64,000 nt of DNA from an uncultured bacterium (GTDB taxonomy: Bacteria; Verrucomicrobiota; Kiritimatiellia; CAIVKH01), in assembly GCA_937958885.1 (NCBI GenBank), contig CALGMT010000026.1, positions 32,468 through 96,467 on the forward strand, in the 5' to 3' direction. A program made the position numbers and the translations under genes. The notes under the pieces are model-generated. The model was not told the origin of the DNA. It saw only the letters and a list, made by a program, of their open reading frames with translations, and made no database searches. Below, one piece after another: positions 8,319 to 61,307 of this stretch; positions within the stretch are counted from its first letter, which is position 1; each line of letters begins with the position of its first letter.

Positions 8319-8374
8319 TTCCATGCTCTGTAAAAACTTTTTTTCGCGCTTCCATACTCTGTAAATTACAGCGC
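8319..8374 (+). repeat. Two tandem copies (31-bp period) of the dispersed motif TTCCATGCTCTGTAAAAA
   Basis: Copy 1 at 8319-8336 (exact); copy 2 at 8350-8365 (TTCCATACTCTGTAAA). Lies immediately upstream of the ATG at 8375. Confidence 0.8.
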
Positions 8375-13036: not shown

Positions 13037-13777
13037 TTACGTACCGGCGCGTGTGAAGGCGGCGATGCAGGGGGTGCCGAAGCGGCGGGTCAGACCGAGC
13101 CGGTCGGGGATCCACTCGAGGGCTTCGGATAGCGCGACGCGCTTGAGGGCGCGGTGCAGTACCATGGGGCAGATAAATTGTCCCGTCCGCCCGGCGGGCG
13201 CGAAGCCGGCCGCCGCGAATGCGCCCGCGACCTCTGCGTGTGTGAAATTGCGCCACGTGCGGGTGTTTTTTTCCAGCTTGCGCTTGGCGGAGAAGAGCCA
13301 CGGCGCTAGCGCGTTGAGCCCGCTTTTCACCGGATAATCCACAACGACCACCGTTCGCGCGACGCGGGCGCATTCTCGAATCAACTGCGGCCAGCGCGTG
13401 CAGTGCGGCAGCAGGCGCACCGTGACCACCGCATCGAACGATCGGTCGGGGAAGGGCAGGGCGACCACGCTGCCGACGATGAACCGGCAGCGGCCGGCGG
13501 CAACGAGGTCGGCGATACGCTCGGCGCAGACCGATTCGCTGCCCAGGACGGTGACCTCATAGCCCGCCGCCGCGAGCGGACGCGCGAGCTGTCCGTGGCC
13601 GCCGCCGACGTCCAGCACCGTTCGCGCGCCCGCGGCGCGCAAGCGCTCGAGCACGAGGCGTTCCTGACGCGCGAGCATCCACGCGCCGATGGGGCCTGCG
13701 AAGCGCGCGGCATAGGAGGCGGATGCGGTCTCAACATCGGCCAGTTCCGGCCCGTGTGATTCGCGGTCGTCATTCAT
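13037..13777 (-). CDS. Class I SAM-dependent methyltransferase
   Basis: ORF 13037..13900; the true start is probably the ATG at 13777 (MNDDRE...), because the upstream part of the ORF reads through the dispersed 23-bp repeats. VLDVGGGHG SAM-binding motif. Confidence 0.75.
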   Translation of the reverse strand: MNDDRESHGPELADVETASASYAARFAGPIGAWMLARQERLVLERLRAAGARTVLDVGGGHGQLARPLAAAGYEVTVLGSESVCAERIADLVAAGRCRFIVGSVVALPFPDRSFDAVVTVRLLPHCTRWPQLIRECARVARTVVVVDYPVKSGLNALAPWLFSAKRKLEKNTRTWRNFTHAEVAGAFAAAGFAPAGRTGQFICPMVLHRALKRVALSEALEWIPDRLGLTRRFGTPCIAAFTRAGT

Positions 13778-13798
13778 CCCCGCGCACGATGTCAAAAG

Positions 13799-13847
13799 TT
13801 CCATGCTCTGTAAAAACTTTGTTGGAAAGTTCCATGCTCTGTAAAAA
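13799..13847 (+). repeat. Two tandem exact copies (31-bp period) of TTCCATGCTCTGTAAAAA
   Basis: Copies at 13799-13816 and 13830-13847. Located in the divergent intergenic region between the methyltransferase and the GDPD gene. Confidence 0.85.
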
Positions 13848-13930
13848 ATTGTTCGCGGCCGGCCCTGATGTAGCGACGAGCGGGATCGGAGGGGACCCAT
13901 GCGCAGACCGCGTCGTTGATTGACGAAGAC

Positions 13931-14260
13931 AGCCTTGTAATTCCGCCGCTCTGCCGGCGGAAGTGCAGGGCCGATGACCTCCGGCGACCGCGCGCCGGAG
14001 CTACAGCAGTGCCGCAGCGTCGGCTGAAATTGCTAAAAAAGTGTCAGACCGCGTCATTTATAGACCTGCGACGGCTCTGTTCGTATGTCTCTCCGTATCT
14101 GTTCATGCTCTCATCTCATCTCGCATCAAGTCCAAGTGCACATACGTAGGGACTAACGCCACTGCCCCGACCCAGTTGGCATCCCGACGTTAACATTCAT
14201 CGTTTGACCCCTTTTGGTCTACGACGTTAACATTCATCGTTTGACCCCTTTTGGTCTACA
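13931..14260 (+). repeat. Copy A of a ~330-bp conserved non-coding element (candidate structured RNA / cis-regulatory leader); its 37-bp tail is tandemly duplicated
   Basis: About 85% identical over ~320 bp to the reverse complement of 28113-28440. The tail ACGACGTTAACATTCATCGTTTGACCCCTTTTGGTCT occurs twice (about 14186-14222 and 14223-14259). Oriented toward the GDPD start at 14309. Coordinates are approximate (+/-10 bp). Confidence 0.7.
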
Positions 14261-14308
14261 AGGGGGGGGTGGACGGGCGGGCTCGAGTTGAGTAGGCTAC
14301 TCCATTCA

Positions 14309-15061
14309 ATGAAAATTATTGCGCATCGCGGGGCCTCGCAGGAGGCGCCGGAGAATACGCTGTCGTCGGTTCACCTGGCGTGGCAGGAAAAGGCCGACGG
14401 GGTCGAGGTCGATGTGCGAATGACGGCCGATGGAAAGGTCGTCCTGCTGCACGATTCGAATACGATGCGCACGACCCGGCACTCGATGGAGGTGGCCGAT
14501 CAGACATGGGATGCGATCCGTCTACTAGACGCGGGGAGCTGGAAAAGCCCGCGCTTTCGGCTCTCGACGATTCCGCTGCTGCGGGATATTTTGAAAATGC
14601 TGCCGCCGGGCCGGCAGATGTGGATTGAAATCAAGTGCGGCGCGGAGATCATACCGGCGTTGCAGCGCGACTTGGATGTGCAGCGGCTGCCGCCGCAATC
14701 GATCGGTTTCCTCGGATTTAGTGCGCATGTGATGGGGCAGGTGAAGCGCGCGTTTCCCAAACATCCGGTGTTTCTCAATGTCGAGGCGCAGGGCCGGATC
14801 GGCGCGCCGCAGCCGTGGACAGCAGAAGTGATGGTTGACGCGGTTCGAAAAAACATGCTCGACGGATTGAGCGTCGGCCTGTCGGATGCCGTGGATGAGG
14901 CGTTCATTGCGCGGATTCGGCACGAGGGACTTGGATTGATGGGCTGGGTGTCGGACGACGAACACGTCGCGTTGCGCCTCGCGCGCGCGGGGCTTCCCGC
15001 GCTGATGACAAACCGGCCGGCGTATATCCGGCATCGGTTGCGCGCGCACGGGGCGCTATGA
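14309..15061 (+). CDS. Glycerophosphodiester phosphodiesterase (GDPD family)
   Basis: IAHRGAS..ENT and E.D...T.DG..V..HD motifs of GDPD. Confidence 0.8.
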   Translation: MKIIAHRGASQEAPENTLSSVHLAWQEKADGVEVDVRMTADGKVVLLHDSNTMRTTRHSMEVADQTWDAIRLLDAGSWKSPRFRLSTIPLLRDILKMLPPGRQMWIEIKCGAEIIPALQRDLDVQRLPPQSIGFLGFSAHVMGQVKRAFPKHPVFLNVEAQGRIGAPQPWTAEVMVDAVRKNMLDGLSVGLSDAVDEAFIARIRHEGLGLMGWVSDDEHVALRLARAGLPALMTNRPAYIRHRLRAHGAL

Positions 15062-19558: not shown

Positions 19559-21268
19559 GTGACTGCCAACGACGAATACATCATTGAAATTCTCGAAAGC
19601 GTCGGGCTGATCACCCATCAGCAAGGCGCGGAAGCGCTGCAGAAGGCGCAGCAAGCGGACAGGGCGGTCGTCGATGTACTCGCCGATCTCCACTATGCGG
19701 CGAAGACGGACGTCCTCAAGGCGCTCGCCAATCAGTTTGGGATGGAATTCATTAGTCTCTCCGGGGTCGAGATCGACCAGGAGGTTGTCGACCTGGTGCC
19801 GGGCGAGGTGGCGCGCCGCTATCGCATCGTCCCGGTGTACCGCATGGAGAACACGATCACGGTGGCGCTGAGCGATCCGCTCGACGTGGAGACGCTGGAC
19901 AGTCTGCGCTACGTATTGCGCTGCGACGTCGGCGGCGTAGTCGCGATTCCGGAGGAGATCGAGGCGGCGATCGCGCGGTATTATCCCGCGACCGGCACCA
20001 CGGTGGCGTCGATGTACGACGAACTGACCGAAGGTTCCGTGCAGACGCCCGGCGAAAAGCCGCCCAAACTCGAGGGCGAGGACGAAGTCACCGACGCGGA
20101 TGCGCCGATCATCAAGCTGGTAAGCTTGATCATCCTGGAGGCGTTCCGAAGCCGGGCCTCGGACATCCACCTTGAACCGTTGGAGCGCAAGTTCCGCGTG
20201 CGCTACCGCATCGACGGCGTGCTGCACGAGGTGGAAAGCCCGCCGAAGCGCCTGCAATCGGCGATTATCAGCCGCGTAAAGATCATGGCGAACATGAGCA
20301 TCGCGGAGAAGCGCCTGCCGCAGGACGGACGCATTCAGATCAATGTGATGGGCCGCGATCTCGATTTGCGCGTATCGTCGGTCCCGTCGAATCACGGCGA
20401 GTCGATCGTCATGCGTATTCTCGACAAGGACAGCCTCTCGCTGGGTCTGCCGAAACTCGGATTCTTCTCTGACGACCAACAGACATTCGAGCGGCTGATC
20501 GGATTGTCTGACGGGATCATCCTCGTCACCGGCCCGACAGGTTCGGGCAAGACGACCACGCTATACGCCTGCCTGAACCACATCAACAAGCCGGACCGCA
20601 AGATCATCACGGTTGAAGATCCGGTCGAATATCAAATTACCGGCATCAACCAGGTGCATGTGCGGTCGGATATCGGGCTGACCTTTGCGGCGGCGCTCCG
20701 ATCGATCCTTCGCCAGGCGCCGAACATCATCATGATCGGCGAAATTCGCGATTTGGAAACGGCGGAAATCGCCGTGAACGCGTCGCTGACCGGCCACCTG
20801 GTGTTTTCCACACTGCACACGAACGACGCGCCGAGCGCGGTCACGCGGTTGATCGATATCGGCGTGAAGCCTTTCCTCGTCGCGTCGTCCACGCGCGCGA
20901 TCATGGCGCAGCGGCTCGTGCGCAAAATTTGCGAGCGGTGCAAGGAACCGGTGCAGCCGACCGACGCCGAGCTGCGCATCCTGGGCGGGTTGGCGGGGTC
21001 GGTGGCGTCCGCGCAGCTCTATCGGGGGCGCGGGTGCGCGGACTGCAACCACACGGGGTATCGCGGCCGCCTCGGCATCTTCGAAATTTTCCTGATCACC
21101 GACGAGGTCCGGCACATGATCTACGAGCGGGTTTCCGCGTCGCAGCTGCGCGCCCGCGCGCGCGAACTCGGCATGCGGACGCTGCGCGAGGACGGCGTCC
21201 GAAAAATCATCGCGGGCCAGACCACGCTGGAAGAAGTCGTGCGCACGACGATGGGGGATGCGAACTGA
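19559..21268 (+). CDS. pilB: Type IV pilus assembly / T2SS ATPase (PilB/GspE family) with N-terminal T2SSE_N domain
   Basis: Walker [11 protein letters not shown]; Asp and His boxes; tetracysteine C..C....C..C zinc motif; N-terminal GspE-N domain. Confidence 0.85.
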
Positions 21269-21270
21269 CC

Positions 21271-22359
21271 ATGACCATGTCCGCCGCCCAGATTCAAATG
21301 AACGATCTTCTCGATCTGGTGATCGAGGAGGGCGCATCGGATCTGCACATCGGCATCGGGCTTCCGCCGGTGCTGCGCCTGCACGGGCGCCTGCAGCCGA
21401 TCGATACGGAGCCGTTGAAGCCGGAGGACACCGAACGCCTGATGGCGTCGTTCACGCCGGAGGAGCATATCAAACGACTGCGCGACAACGGCGGCACGGA
21501 CTTCGGGTTCGGCCACGGGAACAAAGGGCGGTTCCGCGTCAGCGTGTTTCGCCAGAAGGGCGCGGTCGGCATGGTGCTGCGCCTGATTCCATCGCGGCTT
21601 CTTTCGCTGGAGGAGATCGGATTGCCGCCCGGCCTGCGGGATTTATTGTTCAAGCCGCGCGGGTTGATCCTGGTGACCGGCCCGACGGGTTCGGGCAAGA
21701 CGACCACGCTCGCGAGCATGCTGAACGTGATTAATGAGACACGGGATGTGCACATCATCACCGTCGAGGACCCGATCGAGTACTACCACCCGCACAAGAA
21801 AAGCGTCATCACGCAGCGCGAGGTCGGCGTGGACGTGCCGAGCTTCAGCGAGGCGCTCAAGCGCGGATTGCGCCAGGACCCGGACGTGATCCTCGTCGGC
21901 GAGATGCGCGATCTCGAGACGATTCAGGCCGCGATCACCGCCGCGGAGACCGGCCACCTCGTTTTTGCGACCCTCCACACCACCGGCGCGGCGCGCACGG
22001 TGGACCGCATCGTGGATGCGTTTCCGATGGAGCAGCAGAACCAGGTGCGCACCCAGCTCGCGGCCAGCCTCGAGGCGGTCATCTCACAGTTGCTGCTCAT
22101 TCGCCATGATCGCCCCGGCCGCGTGGCCGCCTTCGAGATCATGGTGGCGACGCCCGCGATCCGCGCGCTGATCCGCGACAACAAGACCTTCCGGATCACC
22201 TCGGACATTCAGACCGGCGCGAAATACGGTATGATGACCCTCGACGACCATCTCGTGAGCCTCTTCGAGCAGGGGATCATCAACTACGAGGAGGTCGTCA
22301 CGAGCGCGCAGGATATCGAGTCGGTAATGCAGAAAATCCAACCCAAGGGACGCCGCTAG
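21271..22359 (+). CDS. pilT: Twitching-motility / pilus retraction ATPase PilT
   Basis: ATG at 21271; PilT-type sequence without the N-terminal domain; [10 protein letters not shown] Walker A; HLVFATLHT. Confidence 0.9.
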
Positions 22360-22367
22360 GAGACGCC

Positions 22368-24077
22368 ATGTCGGACGCGGAATTCAAAGATCCGTTTCTC
22401 CAGCAGTTGGTTGACGACGGGCTCATTAATCGTCAGCAGGCCGAGGAGGTCGCCGACGAGCACGAGCGCACCGGCAAGCCGGTGCGCGAAGTCCTCATCG
22501 ATATGGAGATCATCGATGAGATGACTTTGTTGCAGGCGATTGCGAGTCACCTGGGTACGCGCGTCATCGATCTTAGCCGCACGGAAATCAGTCCGTTTGT
22601 GCTCAAGTCGATTCCCGCGAGCGTCGCGCGGATGTACAACGTGGTGCCGATCGAGGCGGACGCGCATTCGGCCACACTGGCCACGTATGATTTGTTGACG
22701 CCGGACGTGGTGGACGAGCTCAATTTCGTGCTTACGCGCGATGTCTCGTTCGTCGTGGCCCGCGAGTCGGATATCCGCACGTATCTCAACCAACACTATG
22801 GCGACGCCAGCGAATCGGTGAACGACATGCTGTCGGCGCTGGAGAGCGAACTGGAGCACGTCGGCGAGACGGTGGGGCATGCCGGCGGCGATCAGACAGC
22901 CGAAATCGAGGAAATGGCGAATCAGGCGCCGGTCATCCGGTTCGTGAATCTCGTGCTGTTCCAAGCGGTCAAGGACCGCGCGTCCGACATTCATTTCGAG
23001 CCGTTCGAGACCGAATTCAAGATTCGCTATCGCGTGGACGGCGCGCTTTATGAGATGGCGCCGCCGCCGAAGCATCTCGCACTTCCAGTGATTTCGCGCA
23101 TCAAGGTCATTTCAGGGTTGAACATTGCAGAACGCCGCCTGCCGCAGGATGGGCGCATCCAGTTGCCGGTGGGAGGGCGGCAAATTGATTTCCGCGTCTC
23201 CACGCTGCCCACGCAGTTCGGCGAGAGCGTCGTGCTCCGCGTGCTCGATCGCAGCTCGGTTCAGCTCGACCTGCAGAACCTCGGGATGCCGGACGACGTA
23301 TTCAACGCCTTCTGCGCGGACATCGACAAGCCGAACGGTATCGTCGTCGTCACCGGTCCGACGGGTTCCGGCAAGACCACCACGCTGTATTCCGCGCTGC
23401 GACGCCTGAACACGATCGATTCGAAATTGCTCACCGCGGAAGAGCCGGTCGAATACGACATCGAAGGCATCATTCAGATTCCGGTTCACGATGCCATTGG
23501 ACTGACCTTCGCGCGCGTGCTGCGCGCCTTCCTGCGCCAAGATCCCGACATCATCATGGTCGGCGAAATTCGCGATAAGGAAACCGCGGAAATCGCCATC
23601 CAGGCCTCCCTCACCGGCCACTTGGTGTTTTCGACACTGCACACCAACGATGCGCCCGGCGCGGTGACCCGCTTGATCGACATGGGCGTCGAACCGTTCC
23701 TCATCTCGTCCACAATGGAAGGCGTGCTGGCGCAGCGGCTTGTCCGCACCATCTGTCAGGATTGCAAGGAACCGTATACGCCGGATAATGAGGTGCTGGA
23801 ACTCCTCGGGTTGCGCCGGGATCAGGTGCAGGACCGCCCCTTTTTCCACGGAACCGGCTGTGTGAAGTGCAACGAAACGGGATACCGCGGGCGTCGCGGC
23901 GTCTATGAGTATTTGCGGGTCACCGATCCGATTCGCGACCTGATCAACGAGCGGAAGCCGACCATCGTCATTCGCGACAAGGCGATGGAACTCGGCATGC
24001 GGACCCTGCGGCAGGACGGGATTCGCTGCATCTTGGACGGCTATACCACTGTCGAGGAAGTGTTGAAGTACACATAA
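22368..24077 (+). CDS. Second PilB/GspE-family assembly ATPase paralog
   Basis: Same domain architecture as 19559..21268 (T2SSE_N, Walker A, tetracysteine motif) but only moderate identity to it. Confidence 0.85.
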   Translation: MSDAEFKDPFLQQLVDDGLINRQQAEEVADEHERTGKPVREVLIDMEIIDEMTLLQAIASHLGTRVIDLSRTEISPFVLKSIPASVARMYNVVPIEADAHSATLATYDLLTPDVVDELNFVLTRDVSFVVARESDIRTYLNQHYGDASESVNDMLSALESELEHVGETVGHAGGDQTAEIEEMANQAPVIRFVNLVLFQAVKDRASDIHFEPFETEFKIRYRVDGALYEMAPPPKHLALPVISRIKVISGLNIAERRLPQDGRIQLPVGGRQIDFRVSTLPTQFGESVVLRVLDRSSVQLDLQNLGMPDDVFNAFCADIDKPNGIVVVTGPTGSGKTTTLYSALRRLNTIDSKLLTAEEPVEYDIEGIIQIPVHDAIGLTFARVLRAFLRQDPDIIMVGEIRDKETAEIAIQASLTGHLVFSTLHTNDAPGAVTRLIDMGVEPFLISSTMEGVLAQRLVRTICQDCKEPYTPDNEVLELLGLRRDQVQDRPFFHGTGCVKCNETGYRGRRGVYEYLRVTDPIRDLINERKPTIVIRDKAMELGMRTLRQDGIRCILDGYTTVEEVLKYT

Positions 24078-24163
24078 GACGCTCATGCGGGTAAAACGAT
24101 TAAGCGTTTGCCATCTCTTGAGCGAGCGGCTAGCATTGGGCCAACTGTTTCGGATTATATAGC

Positions 24164-25474
24164 ATGCCGAAATTCAACTTTATAGCGCTTGATTCGCGCG
24201 GCCGCGAGAGCCAGGGCGAGGTCGAAGCGGACAACCAGACCATGGCGCTGGCCCGCATACGCGAGCGCGGCCTGTTCCCCACCAGCGTGACCGAGGCCGG
24301 AGCCAAGGCTCGCAAACCGGCGCCCGGCAAGCGCGCCACTGCAAAAGGCGGCGGCTCCGCGCTGAACATGAACATTGAGATCAAGATGCCCTCGTTCATG
24401 ATGAGCGTGAAGCCGAAGGAACTCATGGTGTTCACACGCCAGCTCGCGACGCTGGTGGACGCCGGGCTTCCGCTGGTCCGCAGCCTCGAAGTGCTCGGCA
24501 AGCAGGAGCGGAATCCATTGCTGCGCAAGGCGCTTCGCGAAATGGCCGAGGCCATTCAGTCCGGCAGCACCTTTGCCGAGGCCCTCGCGCAACACCCGAA
24601 AGTGTTCAACAAGCTCTATGTGAACATGGCCAAGGCAGGCGAAGTCGGCGGCGTGCTCGACAAGGTGCTGATCCGCCTCGCGGAGTTCATGGAGAAGGGC
24701 CAGAAGATCAAGAACAAGGTCACCAGCGCGATGGTCTATCCGATCGTCGTCATGGTGATGGCCGTAGGTATTCTGGCGTTCCTCATGGTGTTCATCATCC
24801 CGAAGTTCAAAGAGATCTTCTCCGAACTGCTGGAGGGCCAGGCGCTGCCGGGCCTTACGGAGTTTGTGATGGGCATCAGCTCCACGGTTGCGGGCATGGT
24901 GGACCTCGGCTTCATCCGTGTGCCCGGTATAATTCTGGTTATCACCGGCGTCTTTTTCCTCGTGTCGATCCTCAAGCTCGCGGCGAAAACGCAGACGGGC
25001 GCGTACATGCTCGACAATTTCAAACTGAACATGCCCGTGTTCGGGACGCTCGTGAAGAAAACGGCCGTAGGCCGGTTCACGCGAACGCTCGGCACGCTGA
25101 TGTCGTCCGGCGTGCCCGTGTTGCAGGCGCTCAATATCGTGCGCGACACGGCGGGCAATGAGGTGCTGGCCCGCGCGGTATCGAGCGTGCATGACGCGGT
25201 GAAAGAGGGCGAAAACATGGCCCCGCCGATCGAGGCGACGAAGGTCTTTCCTCCGATGGTCATCAGCATGGTACAGGTCGGCGAAGAAACCGGCGAGTTG
25301 CCCGAGATGTTGATGAAGATCGCCGACAACTACGACGATGAGGTGGACAACGCCGTCGCCGGCCTCACCTCCGTGATCGAGCCGCTGCTGATTGTCTTTC
25401 TCGCGCTCGTGGTCGGCACCATTGTGATCGCGCTGTTCCTTCCGCTGATCTCGATCATCGGCAAACTGAGCTGA
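24164..25474 (+). CDS. pilC: Type IV pilus / T2SS inner-membrane platform protein (PilC/GspF family)
   Basis: Two T2SSF repeats; about 3 TM segments. Confidence 0.85.
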   Translation: MPKFNFIALDSRGRESQGEVEADNQTMALARIRERGLFPTSVTEAGAKARKPAPGKRATAKGGGSALNMNIEIKMPSFMMSVKPKELMVFTRQLATLVDAGLPLVRSLEVLGKQERNPLLRKALREMAEAIQSGSTFAEALAQHPKVFNKLYVNMAKAGEVGGVLDKVLIRLAEFMEKGQKIKNKVTSAMVYPIVVMVMAVGILAFLMVFIIPKFKEIFSELLEGQALPGLTEFVMGISSTVAGMVDLGFIRVPGIILVITGVFFLVSILKLAAKTQTGAYMLDNFKLNMPVFGTLVKKTAVGRFTRTLGTLMSSGVPVLQALNIVRDTAGNEVLARAVSSVHDAVKEGENMAPPIEATKVFPPMVISMVQVGEETGELPEMLMKIADNYDDEVDNAVAGLTSVIEPLLIVFLALVVGTIVIALFLPLISIIGKLS

Positions 25475-25483
25475 TCCGCCGCC

Positions 25484-26083
25484 GTGCAACCGGACGGCCA
25501 GCGTGCGAACGATACCCCCGCCGCTTCGCCCGCGCGCGCGCGCTGGACCCGCGCCGAGTGGGTGATTGTCGCCGCATTGCTGCTGGCCGCGCTCTCGACG
25601 GTTTGGCCCGCGATCGCCGTGTTCCGTAGCCGACAACGCATTGCGATGGCGCGCCACGATGTGTTCGCCCTGCAGCGCGCGATCATGCGCTATCACCGGG
25701 AATACGGCGCATGGCCGGCGGACGCCGGCGGTCGCAACGTGGACTTGCGATTCGGCGGGCGACGCCCGAACGCGGAGGTTCTGCGCGTCCTTCGCGCGGA
25801 GGCCGGACCGGGAAACACGGACCATGAAATGAACGCGCAGCGGATGATCTTCATCGAGGTGGAGCCTTATGTGCGCGGCTACTCCGGGCTGGATGCGACC
25901 GGCGAATTTCTCGACCCTTGGGGCACGCCCTACCAGATCGTGCTCGACACCAGTTACGACAACGCCGCGCAGGTGGACAACAGCGTGTATGGCCGCGTGC
26001 CCGGCGTCGGCGTCCTCGTCTGGTCCCTCGGGCCCGACCGGAAATCCGAAACGCGCGACGACATCCTGTCGTGGAAGCGGTGA
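25484..26083 (+). CDS. GspG-like pseudopilin domain protein with a non-canonical N-terminus
   Basis: C-terminal DPWGTPYQ and SLGPD motifs matching T2SS GspG (DPWGNPY / SLGADG). N-terminal hydrophobic helix with E at +5, but no G at -1 and no FTLIE consensus. Confidence 0.5.
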   Translation: MQPDGQRANDTPAASPARARWTRAEWVIVAALLLAALSTVWPAIAVFRSRQRIAMARHDVFALQRAIMRYHREYGAWPADAGGRNVDLRFGGRRPNAEVLRVLRAEAGPGNTDHEMNAQRMIFIEVEPYVRGYSGLDATGEFLDPWGTPYQIVLDTSYDNAAQVDNSVYGRVPGVGVLVWSLGPDRKSETRDDILSWKR

Positions 26084-26101
26084 GCGCAAGTCCAGCGCGA
26101 T

Positions 26102-27049
26102 CTATCCGTCGATCGACGTCACACGCACCCGCGATAGCAGCGCTTCCACATCGGCGCGATCGAAGAGCGCGGGGATTTCCGACATCGCATTCGCGGAACC
26201 GCATGCGATCCCCCATACGGCGGACGCGATGGCCGAACGCCCGGTCGTCAACCCATGTAGAAGGCCCGCCGTCACCGAATCGCCGCTGCCGATCGGGTTG
26301 AGCGCCTTCACGGTAGGCGGCTGGATGCGCCATGACGATTCGCCCGCGAGCAGGCAGCATTCATCCGCGCCCGCAGTGACCAGCACATTCTGCGCGCCTC
26401 GTGCGCGAAGCGCGCGCATGGCCGCCATGCAAGAGGTCGGATCGCGCGCGGGCAAGCCGGTGGTGATCTCCAATTCCTCGCTGTTGAGCTTCACCCAGTC
26501 GGGCTTCGTGTCCAGGGCCGCGCGAAGCGGCGCGCCTTGCGAATCGATCAGCAGCGCGAGTCCGGCCTTGCGCGCGCCGCGGGCGATCTCCATCAGACGC
26601 TCGGCCGGCGCGCCCGGCGGCAAGGCGCCGCTGATTGCGAGCCAGGAGCACTCCGGCGCTTGTTCCGCGAAAAGCCGATCGAACGTCGCCCACTCGCCGA
26701 GCGTGGGCGGTGCGGCCTCCTCCACCCACTCGGTTACGCGCGTACCGTCGCCCTCGACCGCGGTGTGGCAATGCCGCGTTTCCGCCTCCGTCTCGATCCA
26801 GTGGGCATCCACACCGAGATCGTTCAGGGCGCGCGCGATGAATGCGCCAGACGGGCCGCCCCGAAATCCGATAAGGCGCGGGCGCGCGCCGAGCCGCGCG
26901 AGGGCGGCGGCGACGTTGACCCCCTTGCCGGCGGCAGATATTCGGGTTCGTCGCGCGCGGTTCACCTCGCCTGGGCGCATGGCCTCCATAAACAGAGTGC
27001 GCTGAACCGCCGGGGTCAGCGCGAGACAGAGAATCGGGCCGACGCTCAT
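26102..27049 (-). CDS. PfkB-family carbohydrate kinase (1-phosphofructokinase/tagatose-6-phosphate kinase-like)
   Basis: N-terminal LTPAVQRT...PGEVNRA and C-terminal GSGDS motifs of the PfkB family. Confidence 0.75.
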   Translation of the reverse strand: MSVGPILCLALTPAVQRTLFMEAMRPGEVNRARRTRISAAGKGVNVAAALARLGARPRLIGFRGGPSGAFIARALNDLGVDAHWIETEAETRHCHTAVEGDGTRVTEWVEEAAPPTLGEWATFDRLFAEQAPECSWLAISGALPPGAPAERLMEIARGARKAGLALLIDSQGAPLRAALDTKPDWVKLNSEELEITTGLPARDPTSCMAAMRALRARGAQNVLVTAGADECCLLAGESSWRIQPPTVKALNPIGSGDSVTAGLLHGLTTGRSAIASAVWGIACGSANAMSEIPALFDRADVEALLSRVRVTSIDG

Positions 27050-28023
27050 TGCGCGCGCGGGGTCGCACGGATCATCGGTTCCATAGCGTGTAAAAGTTGG
27101 ACCTCGCGAAAGTCCTCGATCACCTCGTCAAAAAGTCGCCACGCCTCCGTGTGAACGGCGCGCGCGCCGGGTTTGAGCGCGGTCAACGGGGCGAGTGTTT
27201 CCAGTTCCAGAATCTCGCTGTTCGTGAAGACCTCGGCATTGCACCCCATGTCCGGATAAACGGCCTGCGGGTCATGCGTATGCCGCTTGATGAACGTGCC
27301 GAAGGGCAGGGCGTAGGCCATCCACGCGGGCGAGGAGCGAAACCCAATCTTCTGCGGCAGCTCGGCGCGCGGGTCTTGGCGCAGTTGGATAAAATTCTCC
27401 CCCCACGTCCAGCGGGGATCGTTCATCTTGGTGTACTTCCAAAGGACCAATGGGCGGGCGGGCAGCAGATGGCGCGTGTGCGATCCGTAGGGTTCCTGGG
27501 GCAGCACAGCGATGCCGCCGGGCGCCATCACCGAGAGCGCCCACGGCGCGACGGACTGCGTCGTGCGGCCTCGATTGATGAGCGTGTGGGTCAAGTGGAC
27601 CGCGCCGCCGACGAGACGGATATCGAGCTGCTTCTGAAGTCCGCTTGGCTTATCGGGCTTTTGAATCAGGCGAAGCGTATTCCCGTCCCATTCCCATGGC
27701 ACGGGATCGTTGTCCGGGACGTATGTCAGCGGTTTAGACTCCGGCGCAATCCAGAACCGGTGACCGCCGAAAATGCGCCATTTCGACCCGCGCGTCTGAC
27801 CGAGCTGATTTTCGAACTCGCGGAAAACATTTTTGCCGTCCACGCGGCCGAATCGGATCACCCGCGGTCCGACATCCGCGGTGACGATCAACTCCGTTCG
27901 GCCGTCTGAGAGACGAAGACAATTCGGCCAGCCGGCATATTCGATGAGGGAAAGATTTGTTTTCATAAAGCGTATTGGGACGGCGCCACGTTCATTCATC
28001 GGAATCTGCATCTCAATCGGCAT
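27046..28023 (-). CDS. Hypothetical protein (325 aa)
   Basis: ORF with good codon structure; 4-bp overlap with the PfkB kinase; no motif recognised. Confidence 0.4.
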   Translation of the reverse strand: MPIEMQIPMNERGAVPIRFMKTNLSLIEYAGWPNCLRLSDGRTELIVTADVGPRVIRFGRVDGKNVFREFENQLGQTRGSKWRIFGGHRFWIAPESKPLTYVPDNDPVPWEWDGNTLRLIQKPDKPSGLQKQLDIRLVGGAVHLTHTLINRGRTTQSVAPWALSVMAPGGIAVLPQEPYGSHTRHLLPARPLVLWKYTKMNDPRWTWGENFIQLRQDPRAELPQKIGFRSSPAWMAYALPFGTFIKRHTHDPQAVYPDMGCNAEVFTNSEILELETLAPLTALKPGARAVHTEAWRLFDEVIEDFREVQLLHAMEPMIRATPRAQ

Positions 28024-28112: not shown

Positions 28113-28440
28113 GCCCCCAAAAGGGGTCAAACGATGAATGTTAACGTCGGGAAAATCGGGATGCCAACGGGGTCCGGGCAGAGCGTCAGTCCGTGTGTAT
28201 GGGCATTTGGACTTGATGCAAGAGGAGATGAGAGCATGAACAGATGCTGAGAGGCATGCGAACAGCGCCGTCGCAGGTCTATGCATGACGCGGTCTGGCG
28301 TTTTCTGTGCGATTTCAGCGGACGAAGCGGCGCTGCTGCAGCTCCGGCGCTCTGCCGCCGGAGATCAACGGCCCTGCACTTCCGCCGGCAGAGCGGCGAA
28401 ACTGCAGCGTGGAATCGCACTCGATATTCGCCGACAAGGC
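28113..28440 (-). repeat. Copy B (inverted) of the ~330-bp conserved non-coding element
   Basis: Reverse complement aligns to 13931-14260. The tail motif CGACGTTAACATTCATCGTTTGACCCCTTTTGG is present once, adjacent to the start of the minus-strand gene 27046..28023. Confidence 0.7.
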
Positions 28441-30900: not shown

Positions 30901-31057
30901 TGAATTCGGGAAACGGAAGACGGAAAACAGAAGAATTTCCAGGTCTTTTGTGCTGCAGGCGCGGGCGCAAGAACCCGCCGAGATCGGATCAACGCATGCC
31001 CTGCGTGCGGCTATCGGGCCGTAAATCGAAACCCTAACCCCGGCCCTATTCCGCGCG

Positions 31058-31170
31058 GCGGGAGGGGGAGGGGGAGGGAGAGGGAGAGGGAGAGGGAGCG
31101 GGAGCGGGAGAGGGAGAGCGAGAGGGAGAGGGAGAGGGAGAGCGAGAGGGAGGAAGAGCGAGGGAGAGGG
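31058..31170. repeat. Homopurine hexanucleotide microsatellite (GGGAGA/GGGAGC/GCGAGA), about 19 units
   Basis: Read directly: ~113 bp of G/A with occasional C, hexamer period. Lies between the convergent zwf and rubredoxin genes. Confidence 0.9.
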
Positions 31171-31173
31171 CAT

Positions 31174-31253
31174 TTCCATGCTCTGTAAAAACTTTTTTAA
31201 GAACTTCCATGCTCTGTAAAAAATTAATTTGCGGCTTCCATGCTCTGTAAAAA
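31174..31253 (+). repeat. Three tandem exact copies (31-bp period) of TTCCATGCTCTGTAAAAA
   Basis: Copies start at 31174, 31205 and 31236; directly follows the hexanucleotide tract. Confidence 0.9.
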
Positions 31254-50065: not shown

Positions 50066-50349
50066 ATGCACACGCCTCCAACAAACGCCGACAAAATACG
50101 TCGGGAATGCCAGGTTGTCAAGGATTGCGCTGCCGCTAAACAAGCGATAGAGGCTGGCGCGTCGGAAGGCAGCGCCCTGGAAGAAAGGTAGGGCGGGGCC
50201 TCCGGACACGCCGGCCGATCAAGACCGGCGCCGCACTAAAACGTGTATATTCTTCACATAGCATTTGCCAAACGGGCTGTTGATAGAAGTTCTTTTTATT
50301 CGTTCGGCAAATGTCGGTTCGGGTCCGGACAAAACACCCCCCCGCTGCG

Positions 50350-50422
50350 CGGGCCCCTCCCAGGAGGGGACCTGAATACGACTCCCCTCCTCCGGAGGGG
50401 TGCCCGAAGGGCGGGGTGGGTA
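50350..50422 (+). repeat. G-rich double-hairpin element (CCCCTCC..GGAGGGG x2 + GTGCCCGAAGGGCGGGGTGGGT), copy 1
   Basis: Near-identical to 61240-61307; contains four G-runs (G-quadruplex-prone). Confidence 0.7.
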
Positions 50423-61057: not shown

Positions 61058-61110
61058 GCCAACAGCCGCGCCGCGTCAAACTTTTGGATGCGAGCCGAAG
61101 AGAAGTGTAA

Positions 61111-61307
61111 TCCCCTACTTTGGAGGGATGTCCGAAGTGCGGTAGAGTCTTGGGTGACGGGAAACGGAACACGGAGTTGTTCAAATCCATCAGTTTGAAA
61201 TCGGAACGAATGCTTAAAAACCAACTCCCCCGCTTCGCGGACCCCTCCGGTGGAGGGGACCAAGAGAGTCCCCTCCTTTGGAGGGGTGCCCGAAGGGCGG
61301 GGTGGGT
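61111..61307 (+). repeat. G-rich double-hairpin element, degenerate copy (61111-61143) plus full copy 2 (61240-61307)
   Basis: Same TCCCCTCCTYYGGAGGGGTGCCCGAAGGGCGGGGTGGGT core as at 50350-50422. Confidence 0.7.

Follow-up and report, generated by a model that had tools for sequence, protein, structure and literature searches.

The 64 kb of DNA analysed here (the window) contains two copies of a sequence of about 300 bp, designated A and B. The copies are inverted with respect to each other and lie 14 kb apart. Each sits between divergently transcribed genes: copy A is flanked by a methyltransferase gene and a GDPD gene, and copy B by a mutarotase-like gene and a DUF547 gene. Downstream of the mutarotase-like gene is a PfkB-family gene which exceeds the TIGR03168 hexose-kinase cut-off. 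The initial annotation reported a 4-bp overlap between ORFs 27046-28023 and 26102-27049, which is correct, and the genes downstream of the two copies (GDPD versus mutarotase-like) are indeed unrelated. The source organism is a relative of Kiritimatiellae, the name carried by a GDPD homologue with 61% identity.

Several of the gene assignments needed adjustment. The gene 27046..28023 had been called uncharacterised; an NCBIfam model relates it to the TTE1925 family of mutarotases (E 1e-86, short of the equivalog cut-off). Homologous proteins have 305-307 aa and their alignment begins at residue 20-21, which makes ATG 27966 the probable start. The longest ORF is thus probably 19 codons too long (27967-28023), as the homologous sequences start at the Met of MKTNLSLIEY. 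The methyltransferase ORF 13037-13900 probably starts at 13777 rather than at the first codon of the longest frame, because the longer ORF would cross an array of short repeats that is described below. Elsewhere in the window (19559-24077) there are three consecutive paralogous T2SS/T4P ATPase frames (GspE/MshE-like); these are the source of direct-repeat families D2, D4 and D6.

Positions ~28113-28412 on the minus strand are a copy of ~13932-14266 on the plus strand, with 83.9% identity over 286 nt (blastn, E 1e-86). A repeat scan of the window gives inverted arms at 13936-14159 and 28183-28406, which are 224 nt long, ungapped and 84% complementary; two MAFFT alignments agree with blastn. All three approaches bear out the earlier description of copy B as the reverse complement of copy A. 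Element boundaries are known to about +/-10 nt. A further ~40 bp of similarity had been noted at the 5' end; it is present, but it is weak (about 60% with indels in the alignments), and in copy A this stretch may be native flank. The GC content of the element is 56-60%, versus 62% for the window. A search of the 64 kb with an nhmmer model built from both copies found no third copy, and the additional matches in the window involve only the self-complementary 5' part of the element. In the left flank of copy A there is a 21-nt direct repeat of the element interior (13904-13924 and 14045-14065, CAGACCGCGTCGTTGATTGAC and CAGACCGCGTCATTTATAGAC, 18/21 identical), for which copy B has no equivalent. 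This repeat may reflect microhomology that served in the insertion, or it may be a 5' continuation of the element that has diverged.

Read 5' to 3' on the plus strand for A and the minus strand for B, the element consists of two GC palindromes, a body of ~200 nt that is less rich in GC and includes invariant blocks such as ATCTGTTCATGCTCTCATCTC, and an invariant tail with the terminal hairpin at its end (Table 1). The 33-nt tail CGACGTTAACATTCATCGTTTGACCCCTTTTGG is present exactly once in copy B and twice in copy A (14185-14217 and 14222-14254, plus strand), with 0 such matches expected by chance. These exact matches confirm that the tail is single in B and duplicated in A, and the CCCC-TTTT-GGGG hairpin annotated at the tail of B is also present. 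In copy A, the CCCC is able to pair with a G-run across a 7-nt insertion, TCTACAA (14245-14266). Copy B has a 9-nt insertion upstream of the tail which is absent from A in the alignment.

The GC palindromes have 8-bp arms and 6-nt spacers, and take the form TTCCGCCG-N6-CGGCGGAA and CTCCGGCG-N6-CGCCGGAG. In copy B they are mutually complementary, forming an imperfect palindrome of ~74 nt (28335-28408) in which the 28-nt arms 28335-28362 and 28381-28408 are 86% complementary; the arrangement is less perfect in copy A. The stems of palindrome 2 are identical in A and B, and its loop differs at 3 of 6 positions. Over both palindromes, the 32 stem positions contain 1 substitution versus ~5 expected (P~0.03). 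This suggests some constraint on the 5' palindromes, which may act as binding sites for a protein or as hairpins.

Table 1. Coordinates of the repeat copies, their parts and neighbouring features (window numbering, unless a relative's contig is given)
Feature	Position	Strand	Remarks
Copy A	13932..14266	+	Insertion relative to orthologous loci L122/L123/L124; native GGTGGACGGGCG resumes at ~14267
Copy B, high-identity core	28113..28412	-	5' end uncertain by ~10-30 nt; weak similarity to ~28440
Palindrome (hairpin) 1 of copy B, TTTCGCCG-CTCTGC-CGGCGGAA	28380..28401	-	A equivalent 13941-13962
Palindrome (hairpin) 2 of copy B, CTCCGGCG-GCAGAG-CGCCGGAG	28342..28363	-	A equivalent 13979-14000
Invariant central 21-mer, ATCTGTTCATGCTCTCATCTC	28225..28245	-	From alignments
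Invariant 33-nt tail of copy B, CGACGTTAACATTCATCGTTTGACCCCTTTTGG	28117..28149	-	Carries -10-like TAACAT
Two exact tandem 37-nt tail units of copy A	14185..14258 (14185-14221, 14222-14258)	+	
Terminal CCCC-TTTT-GGGG hairpin of copy B	28113..28128	-	From sequence
Sigma-70-like site, copy A, TTGACC-18 nt-TAACAT	14204..14233	+	Toward GDPD gene
Sigma-70-like site, copy B, TTGGCA-18 nt-TAACAT	28138..28167	-	Toward mutarotase-like gene
GDPD gene downstream of copy A	14309..15061	+	True start ATG 14309; outside repeat
Mutarotase-like gene downstream of copy B	27046..27966	-	TTE1925-like, weak DUF4380 match; outside repeat
PfkB-family hexose kinase gene	26102..27049	-	4-bp overlap with mutarotase-like gene; outside repeat
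TTCCATGCTCTGTAAAAA arrays	8319-8367, 13799-13847, 31174-31253	+	Before SBP_bac_5 gene, element A/GDPD and PNP_UDP_1 phosphorylase gene, respectively
TTCCATGCTCTGTAAAAA arrays in relatives	L122:975-1057, L121:1-57, L124:5833-5884		Conserved at orthologous methyltransferase/GDPD spacer

The orthologous loci of relatives do not contain the element. The three nearest GDPD orthologues have 88% (L122), 84% (L123) and 76% (L124) amino acid identity. In each case the divergent methyltransferase and GDPD genes are retained, followed by DUF2400 and then LptD where the contig reaches that far. The spacer between methyltransferase and GDPD is 223 nt in L122, 155 nt in L123 and 162 nt in L124, versus 531 nt here (13777 to 14309). 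No trace of the element was found in these three spacers with nhmmer or blastn. Native boxes which flank copy A are conserved: on the upstream side a tandem array of TTCCATGCTCTGTAAAAA, and on the downstream side GGTGGACGGGCG, at ~45 nt from the start of GDPD. The excess spacer length of ~339 nt equals the size of element A. By this comparison, copy A is an insertion at about 13932-14266 that splits the native methyltransferase/GDPD spacer.

At copy B the comparison is with L003, L004 and L005. The spacer upstream of the mutarotase-like gene is 92-134 nt long in these relatives and the element is absent from it; the order mutarotase-like/PfkB/T2SS is retained in L003 and L004. The divergent neighbour in all three is a conserved Pro-rich secreted protein that is encoded nowhere in the window. 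Since the upstream neighbour differs, copy B lies at a synteny breakpoint.

The Jukes-Cantor distance between A and B is 0.175, versus dS values to the nearest relatives of 0.94-1.28 for GDPD and 0.95 for T2SSE. The distance between the copies is far below these values, so the duplication is considerably more recent than the divergence from the relatives sampled. Because it is absent at the orthologous loci, the element is not part of an ancestral leader or control region of either gene. As judged by these comparisons it is a young, lineage-specific insertion; an ancestral acquisition with later loss from the relatives is a conceivable alternative at one of the two sites.

The reading that we favour, and consider fairly probable, is that the element is a young, lineage-specific, non-coding dispersed repeat of ~300 bp, known from two copies in one Kiritimatiellota-like genome. 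Each copy would have been added to a pre-existing divergent promoter region: A within the spacer, and B upstream of the mutarotase-like/PfkB operon. Copying may have occurred by non-autonomous transposition, using an enzyme encoded elsewhere, or by recombination-mediated duplication. No transposase was found among the window ORFs scanned.

The arrangement of the two copies also bears on a different explanation, namely that they are functionless rearrangement debris: the footprint or substrate of an inversion or ectopic recombination of the 14-kb segment. The inverted orientation and the 14-kb distance are consistent with such an event. Copy B is located exactly at the synteny breakpoint, at which DUF547/G6PD have taken the place of the ancestral Pro-rich protein, and protein identity to L003 drops toward it, from 96% for T2SSE to 68% for PfkB and 70% for the mutarotase-like protein. 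However, the junction at copy A is ancestral, as methyltransferase and GDPD are adjacent in three relatives; the segment between A and B is thus not currently inverted. The mutarotase-like gene of the relatives does not have the methyltransferase as its neighbour either, and an inversion that had separated an ancestral pair of these two genes was rejected on this gene order. Conservation is also higher in the stems of the palindromes and in the 33-nt tail than elsewhere in the element, which hints at constraint. We regard debris as rather unlikely.

The fall in identity to L003 extends along the block 22368-28023 (T2SSE 96%, T2SSF 93%, a 199-aa protein 70%, PfkB 68% and mutarotase-like protein 70%). 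Values of dS to L003 are 0.95 for T2SSE and 1.75 for the mutarotase-like gene, and the drop in identity ends at the copy B breakpoint. This suggests a recombination or replacement event adjoining copy B.

Coding capacity was also considered. No frame of the element beats permutation; the best has P=0.055, and that frame contains stops in both copies, so a coding element was rejected. Only one frame, on the forward strand, is open in both copies, and it differs by 7 synonymous versus 23 non-synonymous codon changes. A small protein could in principle be encoded by this frame, or by a mini-ORF on the reverse strand (MNVNVG..MPTGSGQ) that starts after AAGGGG. The mini-ORF has its ATG and the Shine-Dalgarno-like AAGGGG inside the invariant 33-mer; over its first 14 codons, neither of the two substitutions changes an amino acid and the 9-nt indel preserves the frame. 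However, it loses its frame after ~14 codons and its end differs among the three tail units (15, 15 and 38 aa), and the changes in the open frame are as for neutral change. The nine ORFs which overlap or adjoin the element have no exact entry in a collection of 15 billion proteins (ORFs with TTG or GTG starts were possibly missed), and 5.8 billion protein clusters, searched with a profile built from the open frame, yielded no homologue. A small protein is accordingly very improbable.

The initial annotation proposed a shared cis-regulatory leader. In support of this, both copies were said to be oriented the same way toward a downstream gene. The tail of B does face the minus-strand gene pair; however, the argument is uninformative, because between divergent genes either orientation points the tail at a gene start, and both sites are divergent intergenic regions. 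Given this, the orthologous spacers without the element and the lack of an Rfam family, the shared leader is not upheld. The phosphate or sugar-phosphate signal suggested for it is pure guesswork.

More generally, a structured RNA may be transcribed from the plus strand of A and the minus strand of B, either as a cis leader or from a duplicated sRNA gene of ~300 nt, and could control GDPD and the mutarotase-like/PfkB genes in response to a common signal. Folding z-scores relative to shuffled sequences are in line with this: they are -2.9 and -3.4 on the forward strand of the two copies, versus -1.8 and -1.4 on the reverse strand. The stems of the hairpins are conserved, in contrast to the variable loop in hairpin 2, and CCCC...GGGG pairing is retained in both copies despite the differing intervening sequence. 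In hairpin 1, each of the three one-sided changes exchanges G-C and G-U on this strand, but three G-U-compatible changes have a probability of ~0.25. RNAalifold, with two sequences only, gave the same energy on either strand and equally few compensatory pairs (2-3). Rfam offers no family: 4227 models gave 0 matches at gathering score over the window, and at E<=10 the best hits on the two copies had E-values of 0.7-1.4 and concerned models with no relation to the element (miRNA and gntR-DTE). The window also lacks tRNAs and tmRNAs. The signals of an sRNA gene are missing in both copies: there is neither a promoter-like site ahead of the 5' hairpins nor a terminator-like site in the repeat or directly after its tail. 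None of the six orthologous loci examined contains the element, and its roughly uniform 84% identity is typical of a recent copy rather than of old paralogous riboswitches. A structured RNA of this kind is improbable. A CsrB-like sponge RNA rich in GGA was rejected, since there are only about 3 GGA motifs.

A DNA-level cis effect of the element on the adjacent genes is possible. The TAACAT of the invariant tail is the -10 hexamer of the only sigma-70-like sites in either intergenic region, and the -35 hexamers derive from different indels. In copy A the site arises at the junction of the two tandem tail units; in copy B the 18-nt spacing depends on the 9-nt insertion that A does not have. An 18-nt spacer is suboptimal and TAACAT agrees with the consensus at 4 of 6 positions. 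The promoter scan is poorly specific in this genome, with 10 matches in 20 kb versus 3.6 expected, most of them intragenic. On the strength of these motifs the tail is a possible promoter, although a doubtful one. A sigma-54 promoter, proposed for the tail by eye, was discarded since its spacing is unfit.

The two adjacent genes differ in how far they might depend on the element. Copy A separates GDPD from most of its native upstream sequence; GDPD therefore either uses such a promoter or is reached by transcription that crosses the element. In copy B the tail was placed about 90 bp from the gene start, which is true of the longest ORF (28023), but for the probable start at 27966 the distance is ~147-150 nt. 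The ~150 nt between tail and start are non-repeat sequence and as long as the whole spacer of the relatives, so the mutarotase-like gene may not need the element.

For the dispersed repeat that we favour, the most likely consequence would be that of a 'mobile promoter'-type cassette, in which the tail provides the -10-like TAACAT, with a different -35-like hexamer in each copy. Transcripts of the adjacent genes may then start in the tail, and the mRNA would begin with a CCCC-UUUU-GGGG stem-loop. At copy A, transcription might instead begin in the native upstream region and cross the element. Should the tail prove to be a functional promoter, the two copies would give a clear example of regulatory DNA that was copied from one gene to another, unrelated one, with the 'before' states kept in relatives. 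It would also include two independent repairs of spacing, a 37-nt tandem duplication in one copy versus a 9-nt insertion in the other, and would be useful for the study of regulatory rewiring in PVC-group bacteria, which have received little attention. Without promoter activity in the tail, the element would simply belong to the many small two-member intergenic repeat families of bacterial genomes, and its main practical effect would be that it breaks short-read assemblies.

A stronger version can be formulated, in which the element is either a portable cassette (operator-like palindromes, an outward promoter and a 5' stem-loop) recently copied before two unrelated catabolic units, or a new structured RNA of ~300 nt. 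We think this unlikely, and of its two variants the RNA is the less likely. If the cassette were real, a glycerophosphodiesterase gene and a sugar mutarotase/hexose-kinase operon would be under one regulator. Each copy would have been re-tuned by its own indel, so that the -35 is kept 18 nt from the common -10. It would then represent a natural and datable case in which the spread of a promoter has rewired metabolism within an uncultured phylum.

The window contains other intergenic repeats. Three intergenic regions contain arrays of the 18-nt motif TTCCATGCTCTGTAAAAA, each with 2-3 tandem copies at a 31-nt period; chance would give none. Of these, the one next to copy A is native sequence and lies outside the 300-bp element. 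In L124 the array is a near-perfect palindrome, TTTCCATAcTATGGAAA. The arrays may serve a small regulon as operator or promoter. Directly before the third array, in the G6PD/PNP_UDP_1 intergenic region, is a purine-rich tandem repeat (31050-31172; (GAGGGAGAGGGA)n, 12-nt period, about 10 units). A second small repeat family, of ~80 nt, is found at 50340-50421 and 61228-61307, with a degenerate copy at 61108-61149. It has CCCCTCC-N3-4-GGAGGGG hairpins together with GTGCCCGAAGGGCGGGGTGGGT, its two good copies are 93% identical, and it has a REP-like look.

Searches for a wider family of the ~300-bp element gave only chance matches or none. Its central 20-mer matched one locus in a genome collection, by chance, in an Anaerolineae MAG where the matching words are a ribosome-binding site and start codon. 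In a metagenome collection the 23-mer from the tail had no match, and the 19-mer from the hairpin matched 112 loci, all of which were chance matches according to nhmmer. Two 18-mers gave 3 chance matches and none, respectively, in a viral collection; plasmid and phage collections had no blastn match to the element. Short-read assemblies of the same organism (Logan ERR9287890) break within the 33-nt tail on both sides (L001 and L125). Breaks at this place are to be expected, as the tail is the only exact shared stretch longer than 31 nt.

MITEs are characterised by terminal inverted repeats and target-site duplications, and usually occur in tens to hundreds of copies. Correia elements of Neisseria are MITEs with outward promoters. 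The element described here resembles MITEs of this kind in its short length, its intergenic location, the lack of coding sequence and the capacity for stable hairpins, and it may likewise supply the promoter of a neighbour. However, neither copy has terminal inverted repeats between the element ends, and there is no target-site duplication in the form of a direct repeat abutting both ends, as placed to about +/-10 nt. The only repeat shared by flank and interior, CAGACCGCGTC at 13904 and 14045, is non-terminal and absent at B. Lacking both features, it is not a MITE in the strict sense; its copies number 2 in the 64 kb.

REPINs and BIMEs are paired REP palindromes mobilised by RAYT transposases; they are ~100 nt long and abundant. 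Their resemblance to the 5' ~74 nt of the element is evident, as this part consists of two GC-rich hairpins which are mutually inverted and form one long hairpin in B. In contrast to REPINs, the hairpin module makes up only a quarter of the element. When up to 3 mismatches were allowed, the palindrome was found in the 64 kb only inside the two copies, and there is no RAYT gene among the window ORFs scanned. The paired palindromes are thus the one feature in common, abundance is not, and assignment to REPIN/BIME was rejected. A palindromic element derived from IS200/IS605 was also rejected; such an element would have related subterminal hairpins at its two ends for recognition by one TnpA, whereas the GC palindromes at the 5' end share no sequence relationship with the CCCC/GGGG hairpin at the 3' end. 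With riboswitch and leader families in Rfam, the element shares a location upstream of metabolic genes and a predicted stable structure. It differs from them in that it matches none of the 4227 models and is absent from the orthologous leaders of the relatives.

The closest parallel is with putative mobile promoters. These are non-coding sequences of at least 50 nt with at least 80% identity, located before non-homologous genes which also have non-homologous upstream neighbours (Matus-Garcia, Nijveen & van Passel, Nucleic Acids Res 2012, PMC3488235). Families with two members account for 68% of the more than 4000 families described, and non-autonomous elements and recombination-mediated duplication have been proposed as routes of copying (PMC3488235). 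The repeat described here has 84% identity over 286 nt; the genes downstream are GDPD and mutarotase-like, and those upstream are methyltransferase and DUF547. Putative mobile promoters were defined on a window of -50 to -150 (PMC3488235). The tail of copy A is at -55 to -125, whereas that of copy B is inside this interval only if the gene starts at 28023, and begins at about -147 if it starts at 27966; agreement with the interval is thus clear for A and borderline for B. In further contrast, the element is ~300 bp long, and with the start at 27966 most of copy B is beyond -150. Promoter activity is putative in both cases. The best-supported and ordinary explanation is that the element is a tiny family of dispersed intergenic repeats of the mobile-promoter-like kind.
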